NCBI GenBank assembly: GCA_049969615.1
Contig: JBMFOM010000028.1
Coordinates: 1 to 19,284 of the forward strand
From: a candidate division WOR-3 bacterium
GTDB taxonomy: Bacteria > Hydrothermota > Hydrothermia > JBDRYB01
Direction of reading: 5' to 3'
Length of the DNA: 19,284 nucleotides
Every line of letters starts with the position of its first letter. Positions within the stretch are counted from its first letter, which is position 1. The translations under genes and the position numbers were made by a program. Below the pieces are notes generated by a model that saw only the letters and a program-made list of their open reading frames with translations, did not search any database and was not told where the DNA came from. Positions 2 through 19,063 of this stretch are shown here, piece after piece.

Positions 2-625
2 CCTCTCCTTCATACCCAGAGAATAAGGCAAGTGGTCAATCAGGGGCCAGCTAGAGGCCAGCCGGGTGAAGGATCACAAAAGGAGCTTGAGGCTGATAAC
101 AACAAAGATAAGAGGAAGATTGAAATCCGGAAACGAGACCTCCTCCTCCAGTCCTACAGGGCTGTCCGGCTCAACCTTGAGGACGAGGGCATGTTTCCGG
201 AGGCGGGGGAGCTCTATGTGAGGGAGATGGATCTCAAACGGGACTACAGGGTTGGCGGCCGTAGCTACCGGTTTCTCCTATGGCTCTACAAACTCGCCAG
301 CAAATACGGCGAGAGCTGGCTCAGGCCGTTGGTTTGGCTGGGTGTCATTGTTGGCATCTCAACCGCTATATTCACATCAACGGGAGTCAATGACGGGACC
401 AGAGACATTCACTACCAGTTCAAGTTAAGCTGGGATTTCTGGATGGACTGGGAGAACTGGTGGCCCTTTGTCTGCGCTCTCAAATCAACTATTCCCGGCC
501 TCGGGATGATGGAGCCGAGGCCCGTGGGGCCGTGGGGTGCCCTGGGGTCAATATTCACGACAGCAACAGGTGTTATCCTCATAACCCTTCTGGCTCTGGC
601 CATCCGCAGGCGCTTCAGGAGATAG
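2..625 (+). CDS. 5'-truncated membrane protein; resembles the C-terminal membrane region of pentapeptide-repeat proteins
   Basis: The frame is open from position 2, so the gene starts outside the window. It has 'AGELYVREM...LYKLASKYGESWLRPLVWL', then two hydrophobic segments and a C-terminal 'LAIRRRFRR'. This pattern is familiar from pentapeptide-repeat membrane proteins, but the repeats themselves are not in view. Confidence 0.6.
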   Translation, partial: PLLHTQRIRQVVNQGPARGQPGEGSQKELEADNNKDKRKIEIRKRDLLLQSYRAVRLNLEDEGMFPEAGELYVREMDLKRDYRVGGRSYRFLLWLYKLASKYGESWLRPLVWLGVIVGISTAIFTSTGVNDGTRDIHYQFKLSWDFWMDWENWWPFVCALKSTIPGLGMMEPRPVGPWGALGSIFTTATGVILITLLALAIRRRFRR

Positions 626-698
626 GCAGGAGGGTCTTTGCGCCCCCGCAATAGGGCACAGTCCGGCCCCGGCTACAAAGAGCCGTAGCTACCCATGA

Positions 699-1963
<1,265 letters not shown>

Positions 1964-1967
<4 letters not shown>

Positions 1968-2620
1968 AGCATCCTCGTGTTGTTTATCCAAACCTGGAAT
2001 GAGGCCGAAAGGGTCCTCGCGGCCCTCTCGGCTATGTGTATCCTCGGCGTAAAGATCTCAAAGTATTCTATAACCGGGCTTATTTCCGTGTCTATCTCTA
2101 TGCGGTAGGATATGACCCTCGCGGTCGCGTCCACATCTATTATGCTACTGGTGGCCGCGAAATTGACCCTGTCGTGAATGTCATTCTTTATGTCATATGC
2201 AACGACCCTTGACCTATGGACATCCGCCTTGTCCGCCAGGATGAGGGCCGCGGTTATCGGCGTCACGGGCTCGCCTGTTTCCTCGTGGTGGTTGCCTATG
2301 GCTGTCGCAACATCCAGGGCGTCCTGAAAAGGCATCCCGAGATGCGTCAGGTAATCAAGGGCGAGGAGAGCGCCGGTTTGTTCGTGCTGGACCCTGTTTA
2401 TGGCGCTCCCTATGTCGTGAAGATAGCCGGCTATCTCCGCGAGGCAGACATCCCTCTCCGGATAACCTAGCTCCCTCATTATCCTGCCTGCATCCTCGGA
2501 AACCCTTCCCATGTGCCTGTCGCCGTGCTCAGTGTATCCCAGCTTCACGAGGGCTTCGCGGGTCCTTGATATGAGCGCGGCTATCCTCTCGTCCCTTTTC
2601 AGGTCTTCAACGGTTATCAT
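1964..2620 (-). CDS. HD-domain metal-dependent phosphohydrolase
   Basis: Motif set H (YTEHG), HD (YLHDIG), H (GNHHE) and D (LADKAD); 'DIHDRVNFA'. Confidence 0.88.
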
Positions 2621-2636
2621 ACAAGAAGGTTAAATC

Positions 2637-3353
2637 CTAAAGGCCAAAAAGGCCCTCTTCCTCTACTATTGTCCCCACAACCACATAGTCAGCCCCCGCC
2701 ACGAAAGCCGCCTCTGCGGATTCTGGTGTCCTTATCCCCCCACCAACCAGGAGGGGGAGCCTAGTTTCATCCCTGGCGGCCCTTATCATCTCAGTGGGGA
2801 CCGGCATGGATGCTCCTGAACCCGCTTCAAGGTATATCGCCTTGAACCCCAAAAGACAAGCGGCCATGATGTGAGCTAGGAGTATATCAATTTTGTCCCT
2901 TGGGATAGGTTTTGTGCCGGACACAAATTCTACAGCTGTTTGGCCCCCGGATTCAACCAAAAGGTATGCGGTGGGGACAACATAAAGGCCCATCCTTTTT
3001 ATGTGCGGAGCGGCACGAACATGCTCGCCTATCAGGAACTCCGGGTTCCTGCCTGATATGAGGGATAACAACAGAATACCATCGGCATCTGGCGCCAGCT
3101 GGGTGGAATTGCCGGGGAATATTATGACTGGCCTCGCCATGTGTTCCCTGAGCGCCCTTACAAAACCTGGAAAGTCCTCTGAGAGCATCAGGCTGGTGCC
3201 GGCGAGAATTGCTTTGACCCTTTCCTCCGCGTTTATCCTCTCCGCTAGGTGCGGTATGTTGTCCCTGGGCAGGCGATCCGGGTCAACCAGGACAAAGAAT
3301 CCCCTGTCTCTATCTTCCGAAAAGAGTTTCCTTAAGGTATCTGAAGAGGGCAT
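2637..3353 (-). CDS. Geranylgeranylglyceryl phosphate (GGGP) synthase, PcrB/GGGPS family, group II-like
   Basis: 'VLVDPD', 'PVIIFPG', 'SLISGRNPEFLIG', 'YLEAGSGA', 'VGGGIR', 'GADYVVVGT'. AAGGA SD before the ATG. Confidence 0.93.
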   Translation of the reverse strand: MPSSDTLRKLFSEDRDRGFFVLVDPDRLPRDNIPHLAERINAEERVKAILAGTSLMLSEDFPGFVRALREHMARPVIIFPGNSTQLAPDADGILLLSLISGRNPEFLIGEHVRAAPHIKRMGLYVVPTAYLLVESGGQTAVEFVSGTKPIPRDKIDILLAHIMAACLLGFKAIYLEAGSGASMPVPTEMIRAARDETRLPLLVGGGIRTPESAEAAFVAGADYVVVGTIVEEEGLFGL

Positions 3354-4530
3354 TTTTTCCTTTTCTAACAGCGAGGGCCGCGAGGCCAGGCGCGCCAGAG
3401 AGTATCATGCGACCTATGTAGGTAGAATCAACGCTCTCAAGGGATCTCTCGTGAAAGAGGGGTTTGAGCTGTCCAAAGATGTAGTTAAGGTCGCCATCAG
3501 TAAAATCAAAATAGGCTTCCCTGATGGTGTAAGAGAGCTCATAGGCTTTCCTATCGGCCCTTGACCAGTAGAGCTTCGGGTATTCCGAAAGCCTCTTTGC
3601 AGAAAGATTGTCCTCGGAGAGGGCCTCGGCACCCACCTGGCCCGCACTGGCCCCGGAGACCATTGCTGGTCCTATTCCGCCGCCGGTTATTGGGTCCGCA
3701 AGCCTGGCCGCGTCTCCCGCGAGCATCACCCTATCGCCGTAAATCTTCAATTTGTGGCCACCTGTCGGGACAACAGAGAGTATCCGAGCCAGTCTCTTTC
3801 CGCCGGGGAAATATCTGCTGAGAAAGGCCTCCAGGTAGGGGAGCGGGTCAATCCTTTTTTTTCTATCTGCAACGCCAACCCCGGCGTTGGCGAGGCCATC
3901 GCGCTTCGTGAACAACCACGCATAGCCATGTGGAGCAATATCGTTGCCAGCATATAGACCAAGCCAATCGCCTGATATGCCATGGTCAGAAAGAAGAACC
4001 TGCGCGGTGTAGTGAATGTCGGCAATAGGGACATCAACGCCAAGGCCCATAGCCTTGCCAACAGCCGAAGCAGGGCCATCCGCGCCTACAATGAGCCGTG
4101 CGGTGATGCGCTCGTCCTTGCCAAGGTGGTTGAAGCTGACCTCAACGCCATCCTTTGTCCTCTGGGCAGCCGTGAACCTCGCGGATACCAGGAATTCAGC
4201 GCCCGCCTCCGCGGCCATCACGGCCAGGTCCCTATCAAAGATCCTCCTCTCAAGGATGTTTCCCACATGGCCGACGTGGACATGGAAGTATTCACCGGTT
4301 GGGCCATAGACCCTAACGCTCTGAACATGGTTACATATCCAGGCCTTCTCCGGCTCCCATCCCAAAGCCCTGAACCAGAAATCAGTTATCCCCTCAGCGC
4401 AGGCTATTTCGCCTGCAACCTGGCGCTGGCGTTCCAGAACCAGAACCCGATGGCCGCGGGAGGCCAATTCCCGCGCCGCACAGGAACCCGCGGGCCCCGC
4501 GCCAACAACAACAGCATCGTAGGATTCCAT
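3310..4530 (-). CDS. Geranylgeranyl reductase family FAD oxidoreductase (digeranylgeranylglycerophospholipid reductase-like)
   Basis: Rossmann 'VVGAGPAGS', 'CAEG', 'LERRIFDRDL', 'GADG', GGR motif 'PHGYAWLF' (canonical PxxYxWxFP), 'AGDAA...PITGGGI'. Confidence 0.88.
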   Translation of the reverse strand: MESYDAVVVGAGPAGSCAARELASRGHRVLVLERQRQVAGEIACAEGITDFWFRALGWEPEKAWICNHVQSVRVYGPTGEYFHVHVGHVGNILERRIFDRDLAVMAAEAGAEFLVSARFTAAQRTKDGVEVSFNHLGKDERITARLIVGADGPASAVGKAMGLGVDVPIADIHYTAQVLLSDHGISGDWLGLYAGNDIAPHGYAWLFTKRDGLANAGVGVADRKKRIDPLPYLEAFLSRYFPGGKRLARILSVVPTGGHKLKIYGDRVMLAGDAARLADPITGGGIGPAMVSGASAGQVGAEALSEDNLSAKRLSEYPKLYWSRADRKAYELSYTIREAYFDFTDGDLNYIFGQLKPLFHERSLESVDSTYIGRMILSGAPGLAALAVRKGKNALFRYLKETLFGR

Positions 4531-4539
4531 TTCGGGTTT

Positions 4540-5610
4540 TCAAACAGGGAGTCCAGCCTTCTCAATGATCTTGGTCCTTATCTCCTCCGCTATCTCCGGA
4601 TGCTCCTTGAGAAAATCAACGGCTTTGTCCCTGCCCTGGCCTATCTGGGTATCCCCATATGTATACCAGGAACCAGACCTTTTGACTATGCCCTTTTCAA
4701 GACCAAGATCAACCAGTTCCCCGAAGGGATCTATGCCCTTACCATAAAGTAGATCAATCTGAGCGCTCTTGAACGGAGGAGCCACCTTGTTCTTCTGGAC
4801 TTTGAGTTTCAAGGTGTGGCCAATGGCCTCCTCGCCCTCCTTGATCTGTCCGGAACGTCTTACCTCAATCCTCATGGAGGCGTAGAACTTGAGAGCGTTG
4901 CCGCCGGTGGTCACCTCCGGGTTTGCATATGGGCCAACCCCTATCTTATATCTTATCTGGTTGATGAAAATCACAACAGCCCTGCTTTTGCTTACCGCGC
5001 CTGTGAGCTTGCGGAGCGCCTTGGACATGAGCCTCGCTTGCGTGCCAACCGTGATGTCCTCCATCGCCCCCTCAAGCTCTGCCCTCGGAACCAGCGCGGC
5101 CACCGAATCCACGACGAATATATCCACGCCTCCGGAACGAACCATGGTCTCAAGGATGTCAAGGGCCTGTTCACCATCATCCGGTTGGGAAACCCAGAGA
5201 TTGTCAACATCAACGCCGAGGGCCTTCGCGTAGGCAACATCAAGCGCGTGCTCAGCGTCTATAAACATCGCAACTCCGCCCATTTTTTGGGCCTCGGCAA
5301 TCGCCAGGAGCGCTATGGTGGTCTTGCCGGTCATCTCCGGACCGTATATCTCCACTATTCTGCCCCTCGGATACCCGCCAACCCCAAGAGCTATGTCAAG
5401 GCCAAGGGAGCCGGAGGGAATTACCGGAACCTTCTCAACCGGTATACCTCCTATGATCTGAACCGCACCCTTGCCATAGTTCTTCTCCACGAGCTTGAGC
5501 GCGGCTTCAAGTGCCTTTGCCCTCTCGGGGTCAGATTCCAACCTTCCGGCTTCTGGACGCTTTGAGCTGTCCGTAGCCTTCGGTTCCTTCTTATCCTCTT
5601 TTTCGGCCAT
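4540..5610 (-). CDS. recA: Recombinase RecA
   Basis: '[27 protein letters not shown]', 'FIDAEHALD', 'VVDSVAAL', '[12 protein letters not shown]', '[10 protein letters not shown]', 'KNKVAPPF'. Start set at ATG 5610 (AAGGAG SD); the longer ORF would overlap dcd. Confidence 0.98.
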
Positions 5611-5623
5611 ATCAGCTTCTCCT

Positions 5624-6217
5624 TTATTTCCTACGTTTCCCCACACTCTCCCCCTCGGCCTCATCAATCCTGGGGGCAACCACCCCTTTCTGGGCCTGAT
5701 ACTTGCCCTTCCTGTCGCCATAGGAGCACCTAGTGATTTCTGTTGCCTCAAGGAATATCAATTGCGCTATGCCCTCGCCAGCATATACCTTTGCAGGAAG
5801 CGGAGTCGTATTTGAAATCTCTATTGTCAGATGGCCTTCCCACTCCGGCTCAAGAGGGGTTATGTTGACAACGATGCCACAACGGGCATAAGTGCTCTTG
5901 CCCAAGCATATCCCCAGAACATCCCTAGGTATCCTGAAGTATTCAAGAGACCGGGCCAGACAGAAGGAATTTGGAGGTATCACACACTCATTGCCCCTGA
6001 AATCAACGAGGCTCCTATTGTCAAAATTCTTCGGATCAACAACCGTATTCCAGACCTCCGTGAATATCTTGAACTCATCCGCCACGCGGATGTCATATCC
6101 ATATGATGAAAGGCCAAACGAGACGACACCACCGCGAACCAGCTCCGGCACAAATGGTTCAATCATACCGTGCTTGGTCGCCATCTCCTCTATCCAGCGG
6201 TCTGACTTTATGCCCAC
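5624..6217 (-). CDS. dcd: dCTP deaminase
   Basis: '[12 protein letters not shown]', 'GKSTYARCG', 'TPLEPEWEG', 'GEGIAQ', 'YGDRKGKYQ'. Probable GTG start at 6217 with a GGGAG SD. Confidence 0.95.
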
Positions 6218-6312
6218 GGCACAACTCCCAAAATCCAATCTGTTCCATCAGGGAGCAATAATCCCATAGTATTTCCTCTCAAAGGCCCTTCTCTCGCCGA
6301 CCATTCGTTTGT

Positions 6313-6690
6313 TCAATCAACCGCGGCGATACACTCCATCTCCACCAACGCACCCTTCGGAAGTCCCGAAACTGCCACACAGGCCCTCGCGGGATACGGC
6401 TCCGAGAAAAAGCTGGCATAGACCTCGTTCACCCTTGGAAAATCAGCCATATCAACGAGGAATATGGTGACCTTGAGAACATCCTTCATATCAAGGCCCG
6501 CGGCCTCCAGAATAGCCGCCATGTTCTGAAGAGCAAGGCGTGCCTGGGCTTCCACGCCATCGGCGAGATTGCCCGTCTCCGGATCCATACCCAACTGGCC
6601 TGAGACGAAAACAAAACCTTCTGACTCTATGGCCTGGCTGTATGGGCCGACTGGCCTCGGCGCGCGCGGTGATTCAACGGATTTCTTCAT
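6313..6690 (-). CDS. ridA: RidA/YjgF/UK114 reactive-intermediate deaminase
   Basis: 'APRPVGPYSQA', 'FVSGQLG', 'VNEVYASFF', 'YPARACVAV..LPKGALVEME' including the catalytic Arg. Start ATG 6690. Confidence 0.92.
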   Translation of the reverse strand: MKKSVESPRAPRPVGPYSQAIESEGFVFVSGQLGMDPETGNLADGVEAQARLALQNMAAILEAAGLDMKDVLKVTIFLVDMADFPRVNEVYASFFSEPYPARACVAVSGLPKGALVEMECIAAVD

Positions 6691-6795
6691 GCCCAAATAA
6701 TAGACCAGGAGCCATGGCCGGTGCAACCATTCTTGGGTTCGCGAGAGCAAAGAGAATCTCCCTGAAAAATCCCGGTGTCCTTAATAGGCACTGGC

Positions 6796-6829
6796 CTTAA
6801 CACTTTCTTAACCGAACCCTCGTTATACT
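6796..6829 (+). promoter_or_regulatory. Pho-box-like direct repeat plus -10 element upstream of pstC
   Basis: CTTAACA (6796-6802) and CTTAACC (6807-6813) are 11 bp apart, and the second ends 10 nt before TATACT (6824-6829). This is the geometry of PhoB/PhoP-activated promoters. Confidence 0.7.
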
Positions 6830-6833
6830 TTTT

Positions 6834-7712
6834 GTGTTGAAACGGCTAACTGATAGACTTGCTAGGGTCGCGTTCTTGTTTGCCGCAGGCGTTTCAATCC
6901 TCGTTGTGGCTGGCATAGTCCTCCTCTTGGGTAAGAACACCTTCATAGCCCTTAAGACCGTTCCGGTTACGCAACTGCTTTTCGGTACCAACTGGAATCC
7001 TGCTGGCTATACTGGTGCCAGCTATGGCACGCTCCCTCTTCTTCTCTCGTCAATCATGGTCACTACTGGGGCAATGGCAATAGCGGTTCCGTGGGGCCTG
7101 CTTGTCGCGGTCTATCTCTCCGAGGTGGCTACTAACCGCCAGAGATCATGGCTGAAACCCATAGTTGAGCTCCTCGCGGCTGTGCCATCAGTGATATACG
7201 GGTTCCTGGGTTTGGTAATAACAGGGCCTCTGGTCGCGAGGCTCACAGGCCATAGCTCTGGCCTCAACGCCCTGAACGCCTCTATCATACTCGCGATAAT
7301 GATACTCCCAACTATAATCTCAATATCAGATGACGCTCTGAAGACGGTCCCGAAGACATACAGGGAGGCCGCAAGGGCACTAGGCGCGACCCGGTGGCAG
7401 ACAATATGGGGAGTCGTGGTCAAGGCCGCGAGGCCGGGCATAGTCGCTTCAGTGATGCTCGGTTTCGGAAGGGCAGTCGGCGAGACAATGGCGGTTCTCA
7501 TGGCCGCGGGCAACGCGCCGGCTATGCCGCGTTCTTTCCTTGATCCGGTGAGGCCGCTGACATCAACCATAGCAATAGAGCTGGGTGAGGTTGCCTGGAA
7601 CACTGAGCACTATTATGTTCTGTTTGCCTTGGGGTTTTATCTGTTCCTGATAACAATGGTCGTCAACCTGATGGCCGAGCCATTCGTCAAGAGAATAAAG
7701 GAGGCCGCGTGA
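6834..7712 (+). CDS. pstC: Phosphate ABC transporter permease PstC
   Basis: 'AVYLSE', 'VELLAAVPSVIYG', EAA loop 'YREAARALGATRWQT', 'GRAVGETMAV'. Confidence 0.95.
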   Translation: MLKRLTDRLARVAFLFAAGVSILVVAGIVLLLGKNTFIALKTVPVTQLLFGTNWNPAGYTGASYGTLPLLLSSIMVTTGAMAIAVPWGLLVAVYLSEVATNRQRSWLKPIVELLAAVPSVIYGFLGLVITGPLVARLTGHSSGLNALNASIILAIMILPTIISISDDALKTVPKTYREAARALGATRWQTIWGVVVKAARPGIVASVMLGFGRAVGETMAVLMAAGNAPAMPRSFLDPVRPLTSTIAIELGEVAWNTEHYYVLFALGFYLFLITMVVNLMAEPFVKRIKEAA

Positions 7713-12857: not shown

Positions 12858-14179
12858 CTATTTCTCCAAAAGCTTCCTGACCATCGCGAGGTTCAGTCTA
12901 TCGGTTTCCGCGAACTTCATGGCCCCGTAGGAATTATCAAAAGCAAGGCCGCCGACATATTCCAGAAACAGCCTTACATCCTTGTCATTTGGAACTTTGC
13001 CTTTCTTTACCAGTAGAAGTCCCTCAATGGCGCGCAGGTAATTCCGTTGTTTCCTGCCCTCAAACCTGAGGAGCATGTAGTCCGGAATCTCTTCCCCGTA
13101 ACGAATATAATAGGTTATGTCCCCGGACTCGTAATACCAGGGGAAGAGGAACAGGGGCACCAGCTCAAGAAACCCGTTTTCTCTCAGGGCCATTTCGGTC
13201 TTTTTAATCCTGGAAAGCTCATCATTCAGGTATTGGAGGGCTTTTTTCTCCTTTTTGGTTAGGGGGAAATTGGCCGTATCCGGAACATATTCCCTGAAAG
13301 CCCTAGCCAGGAAAGTGTCCACGGGTTCCCTGCCCTGCCTCTTTTCCAGGATTGCCGAGAGGAAAAGCAAACCGGCCTTCCTGGGACACGGCGTGCCCGA
13401 CGGCCAAATGAGATCGTATTCCTTCGGATTCTCGCTGAATTCCTGGGCCAGGCCATCCAGCATTTCAGGCGGGAACTGGCCGGGCAGGCTGCTCCAGTCA
13501 AGTCCCTGGACAGAAACCTTGAAATCCTCTGATGGCTCCCAGTTCTTGAATTTCCAGGTTACCCACCCGTCAGTGAGAACATAGCCTGATGGTCCTATGA
13601 CCCAGGGATAGACTGCTTGCCAGTCATAGGGGCCAGGCTGGGGTAATTCCTGGGGAATCTGAAATCGGAAAACAGCGGAGTCCATCTTCCCTGTCCAGGC
13701 CGCGCCAGTAGTCGCTATGTATCCCAGAGTATATGAGAAGCTCAGGGGCTCGACATTCCGGATCCAAGAGATGTTATACTCGCAAGACAGCTTTTTTTCT
13801 CGCCCGGCTCCATAGTTATTTTGGAGATATAGACCACCGTTTCTGATCCAGTGTCCTGGGAGAGCACAGCTGGTATCTCCACCCCGTCTAGGTATGCCTT
13901 GTAGGAAAGCTTGCCGGCCGCGGGCTCCGGTTTACCCGATGACAGGTCAAACCACTTGTTCCTGAAGGGAAAACCAACAGTGAGGGTTGTCTTTTCGGAT
14001 GTGAGGTTCTCAAGGGTAAACCGGGCATTGAACTTCATAAGCCAACCCTCAAGTATTCTCGCCTCAACAATCTCGGAAACCAGTCTTACCCTGGTTTCTC
14101 CTAGGGGTTTAACCGACGCGCCATCGGGCGCAACCTCATAGACCGAATAGTTTGAGATGAGGTATAAGAGCCAGATCAT
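12858..14179 (-). pseudogene. Frameshifted DUF4424-like exported protein (about 440 aa if repaired)
   Basis: ORF 13742-14179 ('RLVSEIV...FTLENLT...LTVGFP') joins ORF 12858-13685 if the A7 run (plus strand 13792-13798) is A8. The bridge reads 'EKKKLSCEYNISW...YTLGYIATTGAAWTGKMDSAVF', restoring a Y-x-x-x-TGA-x-W-x-G type motif. The family name is from motif memory. It could be an intact gene with a sequencing indel. Confidence 0.7.
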
Positions 14180-15006
14180 TTCCTTATCACGGTCCTTGAT
14201 AACCTACCCCTTCCGTAATCTAGCGCAAGGACATAGACTCCAGGCCTGAGCTCGGGGCCAAGCCAGATCGTTCCCTTGCCTTGGCCTTGCCACAGATCCT
14301 GAACCAGCGCGCCCTGTGAGTTGTAGAGACAAAGCCTGGCTTCCGAGGGCGCGTTCAGATCAACCCTGCATGAAGACGAGAACGCGGATGGCCAGGCCGA
14401 GAGGGTTGCTATTGGAAGTCCCGCGCCCTCCTCCAGCTCAAGGGGTATGTTGGCTATGATGCTTATGTCGTCTATGTAGGTTGAGTCGTCAGCCGGATCG
14501 GATGACCAGAAACCCCATATCCTCAGGCCTGAGAGCTGTTTGCCCATGGTGAGCCAGCTAGTTATGTTCCACTGCCGCCAGAGTGTGTCAGGAAAGACCA
14601 CATCATCGTAGTAGCTCGCATCAGAATACATCAGGTCAAAGGCCTGGAGATAAGCGGGCTTGTTCGGTGGAGCCTGTCTGCTCCAGATGGTTATGGATAT
14701 AATGCTCTCCACAGGTATGGGTTGGGCAAAGTCCTGTCTTATCCAGTAGTTGCCGGTGTCCGTCGCACAATATGTCCCGGAGTGAGGAAATATGGTCGTG
14801 ATTACCCAGTGGTTTCCTGGTCCTTGATACCATGGCGCCAAGGCGCCGGTCTCAAACCCTGTGTTCTGCAGGAGCTCTTGGGGTGGCGGAAAGGTTTGGG
14901 CGCCCGGCTCGTTGGTAGGGACGGGCATGATCTGACCCGTGCCCATATCAACGGTAAAGCCACCGCTCTGGACTATCTGGCCCGCCAAAATCAAAGTCAT
15001 GAACAT
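14176..15006 (-). CDS. Secreted protein with CBM4/9-like beta-sandwich domain and a T9SS type-A-like C-terminal sorting domain
   Basis: 'LLQNTGFETG.LAPW...HSGTY...YIDDISI' is a galactose-binding-like fold pattern. The tail 'LEE...LSAWPSAF...LCLYNSQGALV...LRPGVYVL...RTVIRK' follows the YPNP / IYxxxG / GxYx / K CTD pattern. Strong AAGGGAGG SD. Confidence 0.75.
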   Translation of the reverse strand: MFMTLILAGQIVQSGGFTVDMGTGQIMPVPTNEPGAQTFPPPQELLQNTGFETGALAPWYQGPGNHWVITTIFPHSGTYCATDTGNYWIRQDFAQPIPVESIISITIWSRQAPPNKPAYLQAFDLMYSDASYYDDVVFPDTLWRQWNITSWLTMGKQLSGLRIWGFWSSDPADDSTYIDDISIIANIPLELEEGAGLPIATLSAWPSAFSSSCRVDLNAPSEARLCLYNSQGALVQDLWQGQGKGTIWLGPELRPGVYVLALDYGRGRLSRTVIRK

Positions 15007-18114: not shown

Positions 18115-18268
18115 GGGGCGTTCCCCGCTTATCAGCCAACTCGGATTACTCCTTGAATTTGGTCTCGTTTTAGCTCCATGATTTCTCCGTCACAAGGAAC
18201 CCCAAAAACCGCTTCTGCGGGGTTGAAGCATGAAGAGAAAAGGAGATTTTTTAACAAGGAGTCTGGAT

Positions 18269-19063
18269 ATGAAGAGGCTTATAGGCACACTGGCTATCCT
18301 CGTCGCGGTCGCCGCGATAACCGGCTGCAACAAGGAAAAAACCGACGAGGATCTGATACGGGAAGCGGTCATGAACTCGGATTATTTCGGTTCAAGGACC
18401 GTTGAGGGGCAGTCGTTGTATCCAATGGATACGAGCGACTACTTGACCTGGTGGAGAGATGCCACATCTCACCCTGATCCATATCTTGAGATACGCAGGG
18501 TTGATGACTCGGCTTATGTGGTCTTCTCTGCCAAGTCCATAGGTAATTTCAATATAGCCTTCTGGGACAAGGGAACCTATTCCAAACCATATGGAGACAG
18601 CGCGACCATAGAGGGAGTCGTCCAGAAGAATGACATGGGAGACTGGGAGGTCACCCATGTGACTGGAGTTCACTGGATAAGCTTTGAGAACCCGCCGGAC
18701 TACATCATAGATAGCGTTTGGATGACCATAGGTGGAGTTGATACCGTGATAACCAGCCCAATGAACCTCTTCGCACTGGATAGCGTATTGACATTCACGG
18801 TCGGCTCTGATCTGCCAATTCAGTGTAAGGCTTACACATCAACCATGGACCTAGATGGTGCCCTGCACCTCTTTGGCCAGGGCGAGCACTACAGGCTTGA
18901 TTTCGTGGATTCGGGCGCGTTCTTCTTCGCACAGGACACGGTTGGTCTGACTAAGAAGGGCGTCCACTTTCTGGGGGTTGACCTGTTTGACAAGGCCTGT
19001 CTGATGTATGCCGACACGGCTTACGAGTGCAGGGGTTGGCTGGTCCCGTTTGATGTGAAATAG
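18269..19063 (+). CDS. Lipoprotein of unknown function
   Basis: AAGGAG SD; 'MKRLIGTLAILVAVAAITG-C' is a type II signal with a lipobox; the mature region is beta-rich and acidic. Confidence 0.8.
   Translation: MKRLIGTLAILVAVAAITGCNKEKTDEDLIREAVMNSDYFGSRTVEGQSLYPMDTSDYLTWWRDATSHPDPYLEIRRVDDSAYVVFSAKSIGNFNIAFWDKGTYSKPYGDSATIEGVVQKNDMGDWEVTHVTGVHWISFENPPDYIIDSVWMTIGGVDTVITSPMNLFALDSVLTFTVGSDLPIQCKAYTSTMDLDGALHLFGQGEHYRLDFVDSGAFFFAQDTVGLTKKGVHFLGVDLFDKACLMYADTAYECRGWLVPFDVK

Follow-up and report, generated by a model that had tools for sequence, protein, structure and literature searches.

The 19,284-nucleotide (nt) stretch of DNA analyzed here, hereafter the window, is contig C28 (JBMFOM010000028.1) of a genome of 2.06 Mb in 203 contigs, estimated to be 98% complete (G000; GCA_049969615.1), from an uncultured hot-spring-type bacterium of candidate division WOR-3 (Hydrothermota, class Hydrothermia). 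On its reverse strand, a gene of the geranylgeranyl reductase (GGR) family overlaps the gene of a group II geranylgeranylglyceryl phosphate (GGGP) synthase (GGGPS). In archaea, this gene pair starts and saturates isoprenoid ether lipids. Our analysis suggests that the bacterium probably has the capacity to make saturated, archaeol-like isoprenoid mono- or diether phospholipids on glycerol-1-phosphate (G1P) beside its fatty-acid/glycerol-3-phosphate (G3P) lipids, and that the pair is a functional, vertically inherited operon unit. The observations that carry this reading are the family-level identities of the genes, the conserved coupling of the pair, the pattern in which the genes occur together across relatives and the presence of both lipid pathways in the genome.

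A reductase gene overlapping a synthase gene

The pair is arranged as follows:

3310-4530, minus strand: geranylgeranyl-reductase-family flavoprotein (GGR), 406 amino acids (aa), P0002, ATG start; upstream gene of the pair
2637-3353, minus strand: group II GGGP synthase (GGGPS), 238 aa, P0001, ATG start; downstream gene of the pair
3310-3353, minus strand: overlap of the GGR 3′ end and the GGGPS 5′ end, 44 nt, out-of-frame and dual-coding

An earlier reading of this DNA, made by a model from the letters and translations only (the sequence-only reading), had reported the 44-nt overlap and assigned the synthase to group II. The list of open reading frames (ORFs) agrees on the overlap, and the structural relatives and profile scores agree on the assignment. 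The synthase scores 121.2 bits against PF01884 (PcrB; cut-off 23.9) and passes both the GGGP equivalog model TIGR01769 (175.2 bits, cut-off 161.55) and NF003198 (249.7 bits, cut-off 247). Its best solved relatives are 4jej (E 4.1e-54) and 4mm1 (E 6.2e-44), with identities of roughly 50% at most; we take them to be the group II enzymes of Flavobacteriales and Methanothermobacter, respectively. The heptaprenylglyceryl-phosphate synthase 4nae matches more weakly (E 1.7e-6) and the group I models fall far below their cut-offs (TIGR04146, 36 bits against 320; TIGR04147, 23.9 against 300), which together with the two best relatives places the protein in group II; NF003197 gives 21 bits (cut-off 260). 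Across 15 aligned homologues, D24-P25-D26, E176, G178-S179-G180 and G204-G206 are invariant, presumably as the phosphate-binding and metal/diphosphate motifs of the TIM barrel. Residue F143 aligns with W141 of the 4mm1 chain, in a column that holds F or Y in 15/15 sequences; PMC7888582 describes the W141 position of mtGGGPS as the “aromatic anchor” in group II enzymes that are hexamers. Upstream of the D24-P25-D26 block, no in-frame ATG, GTG or TTG occurs other than the ATG at 3353, which is immediately preceded by a purine stretch containing GGA; the next Met is residue 56. Because no alternative in-frame start precedes this invariant block, neither the GGGPS start nor the overlap is a start-calling artefact.

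The reductase passes TIGR02032 (GG-reductase family; 206.7 bits, cut-off 158.8) and PF22578 (GGR_cat; 51.7 bits, cut-off 27). Its best solved relative is the digeranylgeranylglycerophospholipid (DGGGPL) reductase 3oz2 (E 9.6e-50), aligned over residues 1-345 so as to take in the FAD-binding GxGxxG, C44 and the Y-x-W-x-F segment; other solved relatives are the Sulfolobus-type GGR 3atq (E 1e-21) and the FixC protein 7koe (E 6.5e-11). G10, G12, G15, C44, Y203, W205, F207 and G272-D273-A274 are invariant in 13 homologues, and we assume that the FAD motif, the active-site Cys and the Y-x-W-x-F segment play the roles they have in solved GGRs. All three lipid-reductase equivalogs are below cut-off (NF041160, 176.8 bits against 780; NF041080, 134.1 against 580; NF041385, 79.5 against 700), and the first two are the top NCBIfam equivalogs, above BchP-ChlP (116.1, cut-off 343.3), MenJ (66.2, cut-off 700), ChlP (58.3, cut-off 505.3) and FixC (40.5, cut-off 610). 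Judged by its profile scores and its sequence matches to solved structures, the protein does not group with MenJ or FixC. By sequence it is a GG-reductase family member of the archaeal lipid-reductase type and at most a candidate DGGGPL reductase.

We examined conservation in a class sample of 41 genomes from 12 families, G000 included, and in 121 genomes sampled from the phylum. In the class, 31/41 genomes have a GGGPS match: 27 are close (at least 43% identity), three are divergent (30-33%) and one is a fragment of 36 residues in a 77%-complete genome (G012), which we counted with the close ones to give 28. GGR matches (E ≤1e-20) occur in 26/41 class genomes; the 23 at 33% identity or more are all in GGGPS carriers, and the remaining three (25-27%) are in genomes without GGGPS. 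As the sequence-only reading would lead one to expect, the adjacency is kept in relatives: of the 23 class genomes that have both genes, 20 show GGR immediately upstream of GGGPS and co-oriented with it (exceptions, G003, G030 and G038), and in two further genomes, of family f6, a GGR-like ORF of 24% identity takes this overlapping place. Across the phylum sample, GGGPS is found in 78/121 genomes, GGR (E ≤1e-30) in 52/121 and both in 51. The two are adjacent in at least 29 of these 51, a lower bound because some non-adjacent cases lie at contig ends; 17 of the 29 are outside the class, with reductase identity down to 26-30%. A separate set of 29 loci from other named metagenome-assembled genomes (MAGs) has GGR directly upstream in four (L002, L004, L016 and L028), the upstream DNA of several being too short to judge.

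The overlap measures 38, 41, 44 or 47 nt, always 2 modulo 3, in 12/12 class-type loci (L045-L055 and L002), lengths that are partly circular in that starts were picked nearest the homology-predicted position; the GGR stop always falls inside the region aligning with the GGGPS N-terminus. L004, L016 and L028 have gaps of 6-14 nt instead. The conservation of such a long overlap suggests that GGR and GGGPS form a single translational unit, and probable translational coupling is our interpretation of it: translation of GGGPS would depend on that of GGR, leading to co-production. A complex prediction for the two proteins from their own alignments gave a score of 0.00, which speaks neither for nor against binding.

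Some relatives carry variants of the locus. One class genome has an in-frame TAA inside the GGR match (G017:C2:254836-255918), and in one phylum genome GGR is present in two tandem copies upstream of GGGPS (G052:C3:16157-18878). Three genomes of family f8, genus g11, carry a divergent PcrB-like gene (30-33% identity) at its customary site upstream of an HD-domain gene and rho (G015:C44:34704-37318, G020:C51:11153-13743 and G025:C1:33525-36114) and have no match to GGR or to the two further pathway genes described below; this gene may be a decaying or re-purposed synthase.

Other pathway genes, inheritance and neighbourhood

G1P dehydrogenase (G1PDH), digeranylgeranylglyceryl phosphate (DGGGP) synthase (DGGGPS) and CarS are all absent from the window, as the first reading held. 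Candidates for the first two are present elsewhere in the genome:

C99:3764-4774: G1PDH-like gene (NF002022, 237.8 bits, cut-off 413 not reached, against 78.9 for GldA)
C45:13842-14654: DGGGPS-like UbiA gene (NF009521 best model, 176.7 bits, cut-off 296 not reached)

The G1PDH-like protein matches the G1PDH structure 4rgq at E 3.6e-47 and glycerol dehydrogenases at 2.5e-15 or weaker, except 3ce9 (E 1.6e-35), which was deposited under the name “glycerol dehydrogenase.” Its gene closes a co-oriented string on C99 (L039, 818-4774) of a short-chain polyprenyl synthase, a DUF212/PAP2-like gene, an M50 peptidase, fabH and the G1PDH-like gene, the last overlapping the fabH 3′ end by 28 nt as the ORFs were called. 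An archaeal-type backbone gene thus sits on a fatty-acid synthesis gene; the junction occurs only in G000 and G002, a second genome of the same genus, which rules it out as a class-wide feature. The C45 candidate, which answers the suggestion of a UbiA-type DGGGP synthase elsewhere, is one of five UbiA-family genes in the genome, and its only solved match is the DGGGP synthase 6m31 (E 1.5e-29, full length). The other four are an MqnP-like gene (C118), a decaprenyl-phosphate phosphoribosyltransferase-like gene and two without clear assignment (C57:4687-6921, L043; C46:7674-8609, L042). One unassigned UbiA-family protein is 744-772 aa long, with a UbiA core matched at about 300-505 and long flanks.

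Searches of the genome for the remaining steps found IspH of the methylerythritol phosphate (MEP) pathway and no HMG-CoA reductase, two polyprenyl synthases (C99 and C169), CdsA and two CDP-alcohol phosphatidyltransferases. Of the bacterial lipid genes, two copies of PlsY (C12:17894-18418 and C65:476-1003), PlsC, GpsA and FabH were found, PlsX and most Fab genes lying outside the search; FabH is present in 39/41 class genomes. IspH adjoins the sole PlsC-family match (C16:11577-12939). This arrangement may be of note because PlsY and PlsC are reported in a 2026 paper (PMC13400652) to accept both glycerol-phosphate stereo-forms.

The pathway genes come and go together. A DGGGPS-like match (E ≤1e-10) is present in 28/41 class genomes, precisely those counted above as carrying a close GGGPS or the fragment; the G1PDH-like match (19 genomes) and GGR (23) fall entirely inside these 28, and all four genes occur together in 15/41. 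Families f3, f10 and part of f8 have none of the four, yet keep FabH and the HD-rho gene pair. No co-occurrence statistic is given because the relatives are not independent; the repeated joint presence and absence over 12 families is as a shared pathway predicts. The DGGGPS-like gene and GGGPS are on different contigs in G000 and its class relatives, and are clustered only in L016 (3676-6708) and L028 (3669-6534; labelled Poribacteria), in the order UbiA-GGR-GGGPS, where the UbiA gene directly upstream is 32-34% identical to the C45 candidate. The GGRs of these two loci (470-474 aa) carry a fused N-terminal 2x[4Fe-4S] ferredoxin domain, which suggests that ferredoxin is the likely electron donor in general.

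To place the synthase among its relatives, we built a tree of 37 rows, comprising the window and 36 of the 40 loci supplied (matches shorter than 200 residues were dropped). The window groups with its own genus (100/100) and then with class families f7, f6 and f11 (88/81). Rows labelled Poribacteria, Gemmatimonadota, Latescibacterota and Ignavibacteriota fall in the other half, and a row labelled Stahliibacteriota lies on the window’s side with weak support (59/13). Such a topology fits old, mainly vertical inheritance with no recent transfer. All four genes are found in G002 at 71-84% identity on large contigs, so the gene set is not a binning accident; a misbinned archaeal contig is ruled out by this and by recA and rho on the same contig as the pair. 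One locus labelled as a Micrarchaeota archaeon (L007:4964-6732) has G1PDH directly upstream of a GGGPS 51% identical to the window’s, which falls among bacterial sequences in the tree on a long branch; a transfer or a mislabelled contig is possible.

The pair is flanked in the window by the following genes:

4540-5751, minus strand: recA (TIGR02012, 498.7 bits), its stop 9 nt before the GGR start
1964-2620, minus strand: HD-domain gene, role unassigned (PF01966, 45 bits), 16 nt after the GGGPS stop
699-1991, minus strand: rho, transcription termination factor Rho (NF006886, 619.7 bits), last gene of the string

Coordinates and family matches agree with the described position between recA, with its 9-nt gap, and HD-rho. 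The notion of a recA-rho cluster holds for one side: the GGGPS-(HD)-rho order is present in most class families, and recA adjoins GGR only in the genus (G000, G001 and G002) among the 38/41 class genomes with a recA match, which rules out the cluster as an ancestral frame. Four loci labelled Gemmatimonadota, Ignavibacteria or Latescibacterota (L012, L018, L020 and L024, at about 1300-6750 in each) have GGGPS directly after alaS in a recA-recX-alaS string, the arrangement in L024 being judged from position and ORF sizes only; the vicinity of recA to lipid genes both there and in the window’s genus may reflect shared history or coincidence. The HD gene is present in 36/41 class genomes, and the only solved relative of its product is an uncharacterised HD hydrolase (2pq7, E 8.2e-5). 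Because it adjoins rho also in genomes without GGGPS (for example, G004, G016, G031, G039, G009 and G034), it belongs with rho rather than with the lipid genes, and a role as lipid phosphatase of the module is ruled out.

No transposase or integrase family was matched in a Pfam scan of 19 window ORFs, consistent with the reported absence of mobility genes nearby, and G+C over the pair (0.53-0.58) is inside the window range (0.49-0.58). Four ORFs of 145-277 aa, at 12858-15006 (minus strand) and 18230-19063 (plus strand), had no Pfam match. A promoter and terminator scan of 500-7000 gave three promoter-like and five terminator-like sites, the shuffle means being higher (4.4 and 6.7). A search for sequencing runs gave no RNA run for this genome and two DNA runs with small shares (0.07 and 0.06).

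Proposed lipids and alternative readings

Based on this gene set, we infer a pathway in which the substrates, the chain length, the stage of reduction, the electron donor and any role of the product in the bulk membrane are predictions. A short-chain polyprenyl synthase would elongate MEP-derived isopentenyl diphosphate (IPP) and dimethylallyl diphosphate (DMAPP), while the G1PDH-like enzyme would reduce dihydroxyacetone phosphate (DHAP) to G1P. GGGPS would then form the first ether bond between the polyprenyl diphosphate and G1P, the C45 UbiA candidate would attach the second chain, and the FAD-dependent GGR would saturate the isoprenoid chains at some point on this route. Head groups could be added via CdsA and the CDP-alcohol transferases. 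The idea that this bacterium makes a saturated glycerol ether, voiced in the sequence-only reading, is supported at the gene level; the C20 “phytanyl” nature of the chains is conjectural. A more far-reaching version can be offered only tentatively. The lineage might build heterochiral mixed membranes, combining saturated archaeol-type G1P diethers, made with its own G1PDH, and fatty-acid G3P esters; the overlap of about 40 nt would fix the co-production of GGR and GGGPS. Saturation would then be coupled with the first committed step (reduction of geranylgeranyl diphosphate (GGPP) or GGGP, for example), whereas in archaea it takes place on the finished phospholipid.

Several points weigh against the proposed capacity for saturated ether lipids. 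The evidence is genomic, and lipid product, transcription and enzyme activity are predictions. GGR (176.8 bits, cut-off 780), the G1PDH-like protein (237.8, cut-off 413) and the DGGGPS-like protein (176.7, cut-off 296) are all below equivalog cut-offs, so the substrate cannot be assigned from models. The distribution is uneven: a G1PDH-like match is missing in families f4 and f5 and a close GGR in f6 and f9, and family f21 of the phylum sample has GGGPS in 17/18 genomes but GGR in 0/18. No ferredoxin gene flanks the pair in the window. Both polyprenyl synthases fall short of a clear assignment as GGPP synthase, the C99 one scoring 269.8 bits against FPP synthase (cut-off 275) and 261 against CrtE (cut-off 460). 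The residue 5 positions before the first Asp-rich motif (DDxxD) is Phe in this enzyme and Gly in the C169 synthase; Phe at this position would favour a C15 product. Finally, the search for CarS (PF01864) gave no match in this 98%-complete genome, and the use of CdsA in its place rests on the statement in PMC7852524 that bacterial CdsA can replace CarS.

Of the other explanations, the one that survives best, though we consider it unlikely, is that the product is no more than a minor isoprenoid glycerol mono-ether, possibly not a phospholipid and of low abundance in the envelope, with no archaeol-like diether and no mixed membrane. The AraM/PcrB pathway of Bacillus subtilis is the model for such a product. 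The retention of fatty-acid synthesis across the class (FabH in 39/41 genomes), the presence of PlsY, PlsC, GpsA and CdsA without a CarS match in the genome itself and the sub-threshold score of the DGGGPS-like protein all fit a minor role, and PMC6431249 warns that genes of this kind in bacteria might not function in making membrane phospholipids. What speaks for a second chain is that the DGGGPS-like gene accompanies the close GGGPS in 28/28 class genomes while none of the remaining 13 has it, and that the UbiA gene is clustered with GGR-GGGPS in L016 and L028; moreover, the synthase is far nearer to GGGPS (4.1e-54) than to heptaprenylglyceryl-phosphate synthase (1.7e-6).

It is considerably less probable that GGR acts on another polyprenyl compound (the menaquinone side chain, polyprenol carriers or phytyl groups) and that its adjacency to GGGPS reflects no more than shared isoprenoid metabolism. 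The family does include MenJ and ChlP/BchP, every equivalog-level lipid-reductase model was missed, and the MqnP-like prenyltransferase on C118 suggests that the genome probably makes menaquinone. However, MenJ, ChlP and FixC (66, 58 and 40 bits) score far under the lipid-reductase models (177 and 134), a close GGR occurs only with GGGPS (23/23 class genomes and 51/52 in the phylum sample), and the overlapping arrangement is kept down to 26-30% reductase identity. As for salvage or breakdown of environmental archaeal lipids with the reactions running in reverse, which PMC6431249 raises as a possibility for bacterial members of the FCB (Fibrobacteres-Chlorobi-Bacteroidetes) group that are without G1PDH, and which would suit families f4 and f5 with their GGGPS, DGGGPS-like gene and GGR but no G1PDH-like match, we find it hardly credible here, given a G1PDH-like gene in this and 18 other class genomes that is confined to GGGPS carriers, a chain-saturating reductase that has no obvious role in breakdown, and polyprenyl synthases and IspH for de novo supply.

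Comparison with known systems

The question of whether bacteria in nature make archaeal-type lipids beside their own bears on the “lipid divide” and on the idea of a mixed-membrane ancestor. A literature search found no paper on these genes in the WOR-3 phylum, the supplements of PMC7852524 and PMC6431249, which may include WOR-3 sequences, being outside the search. A pure culture of a Hydrothermia member, isolate sy37, is reported (PMC12285271, PMC12542636); the first of these papers describes this WOR-3 isolate and the second 181 WOR-3 MAGs, and their main texts do not mention lipids as a biosynthesis topic, ethers, isoprenoids or geranylgeranyl. The lineage is thus reported to have a cultured member, so that a direct lipid test is possible, and if the proposed capacity is real and sy37 carries the genes, it would be a cultured natural system for the mixed-membrane idea.

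At the level of single proteins, the synthase resembles the group II GGGPS of Flavobacteriales and Methanothermobacter in family, fold class, substrate-phosphate motifs and the DPD motif. The Flavobacteriales enzymes, by contrast, have charged anchor residues and form dimers according to PMC7888582, while the corresponding F143 is aromatic here. The reductase shares GxGxxG, C44 and Y-x-W-x-F with 3oz2 and the Sulfolobus-type GGR 3atq, over a 345-residue alignment in the case of 3oz2, and differs in having, in this genus, Thr for Pro after the Phe (FTKR vs. FPKG).

At the level of the pathway, the closest case is that of “Ca. Cloacimonetes,” whose MAGs, as described in PMC7852524 (Villanueva et al., ISME J 2020/21), have GGGPS co-localised with DGGGPS, together with GGRs, polyprenyl synthases and the MEP pathway, and neither CarS nor G1PDH; the same work reports that the enzymes are active in E. 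coli and that homologues exist in other FCB and related candidate phyla. Like that set, ours comprises GGGPS, a DGGGPS-type UbiA, GGR, polyprenyl synthases, the MEP pathway and CdsA, is without CarS and is accompanied by a retained fatty-acid/G3P pathway (compare PMC7852524). It differs in that GGGPS overlaps GGR, the DGGGPS-like gene is on another contig and a co-inherited G1PDH-like gene is present; the Cloacimonetes proteins have demonstrated activity, while those described here are known from genes.

A survey by Coleman et al. (2019; PMC6431249) reports GGGPS and DGGGPS in 12/12 FCB phyla and G1PDH only in Fibrobacteres and Cloacimonetes. The phyla that it names for all three genes in one genome are Firmicutes, Actinobacteria and Fibrobacteres, with Bacillus, Streptomyces and, within Fibrobacteres, Chitinispirillum and Chitinivibrio as examples; its Table 1 includes a row for “Candidate division WOR-3.” As in the bacteria of that survey, genes of the G1PDH, GGGPS and DGGGPS types are found here in a single bacterial genome; unlike the survey, whose scope did not extend to it, we also considered the reductase.

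The set of GGGPS, DGGGPS and GGR has thus already been published for FCB-group bacteria (PMC7852524, PMC6431249), and the lineage described here is another with it. The published bacterial cases are without a G1P source (Cloacimonetes) or without reductase evidence, and here the four genes stand together in 15 of the 41 class genomes. What is new is the co-inherited G1PDH-like gene, the 38-47-nt dual-coding GGR/GGGPS overlap across the class, with adjacency across the phylum, and the reported existence of a cultured member. Taken together, these comparisons leave the concept unchanged; what they add is a lineage, its arrangement of the genes and an organism in which the idea can be tested.

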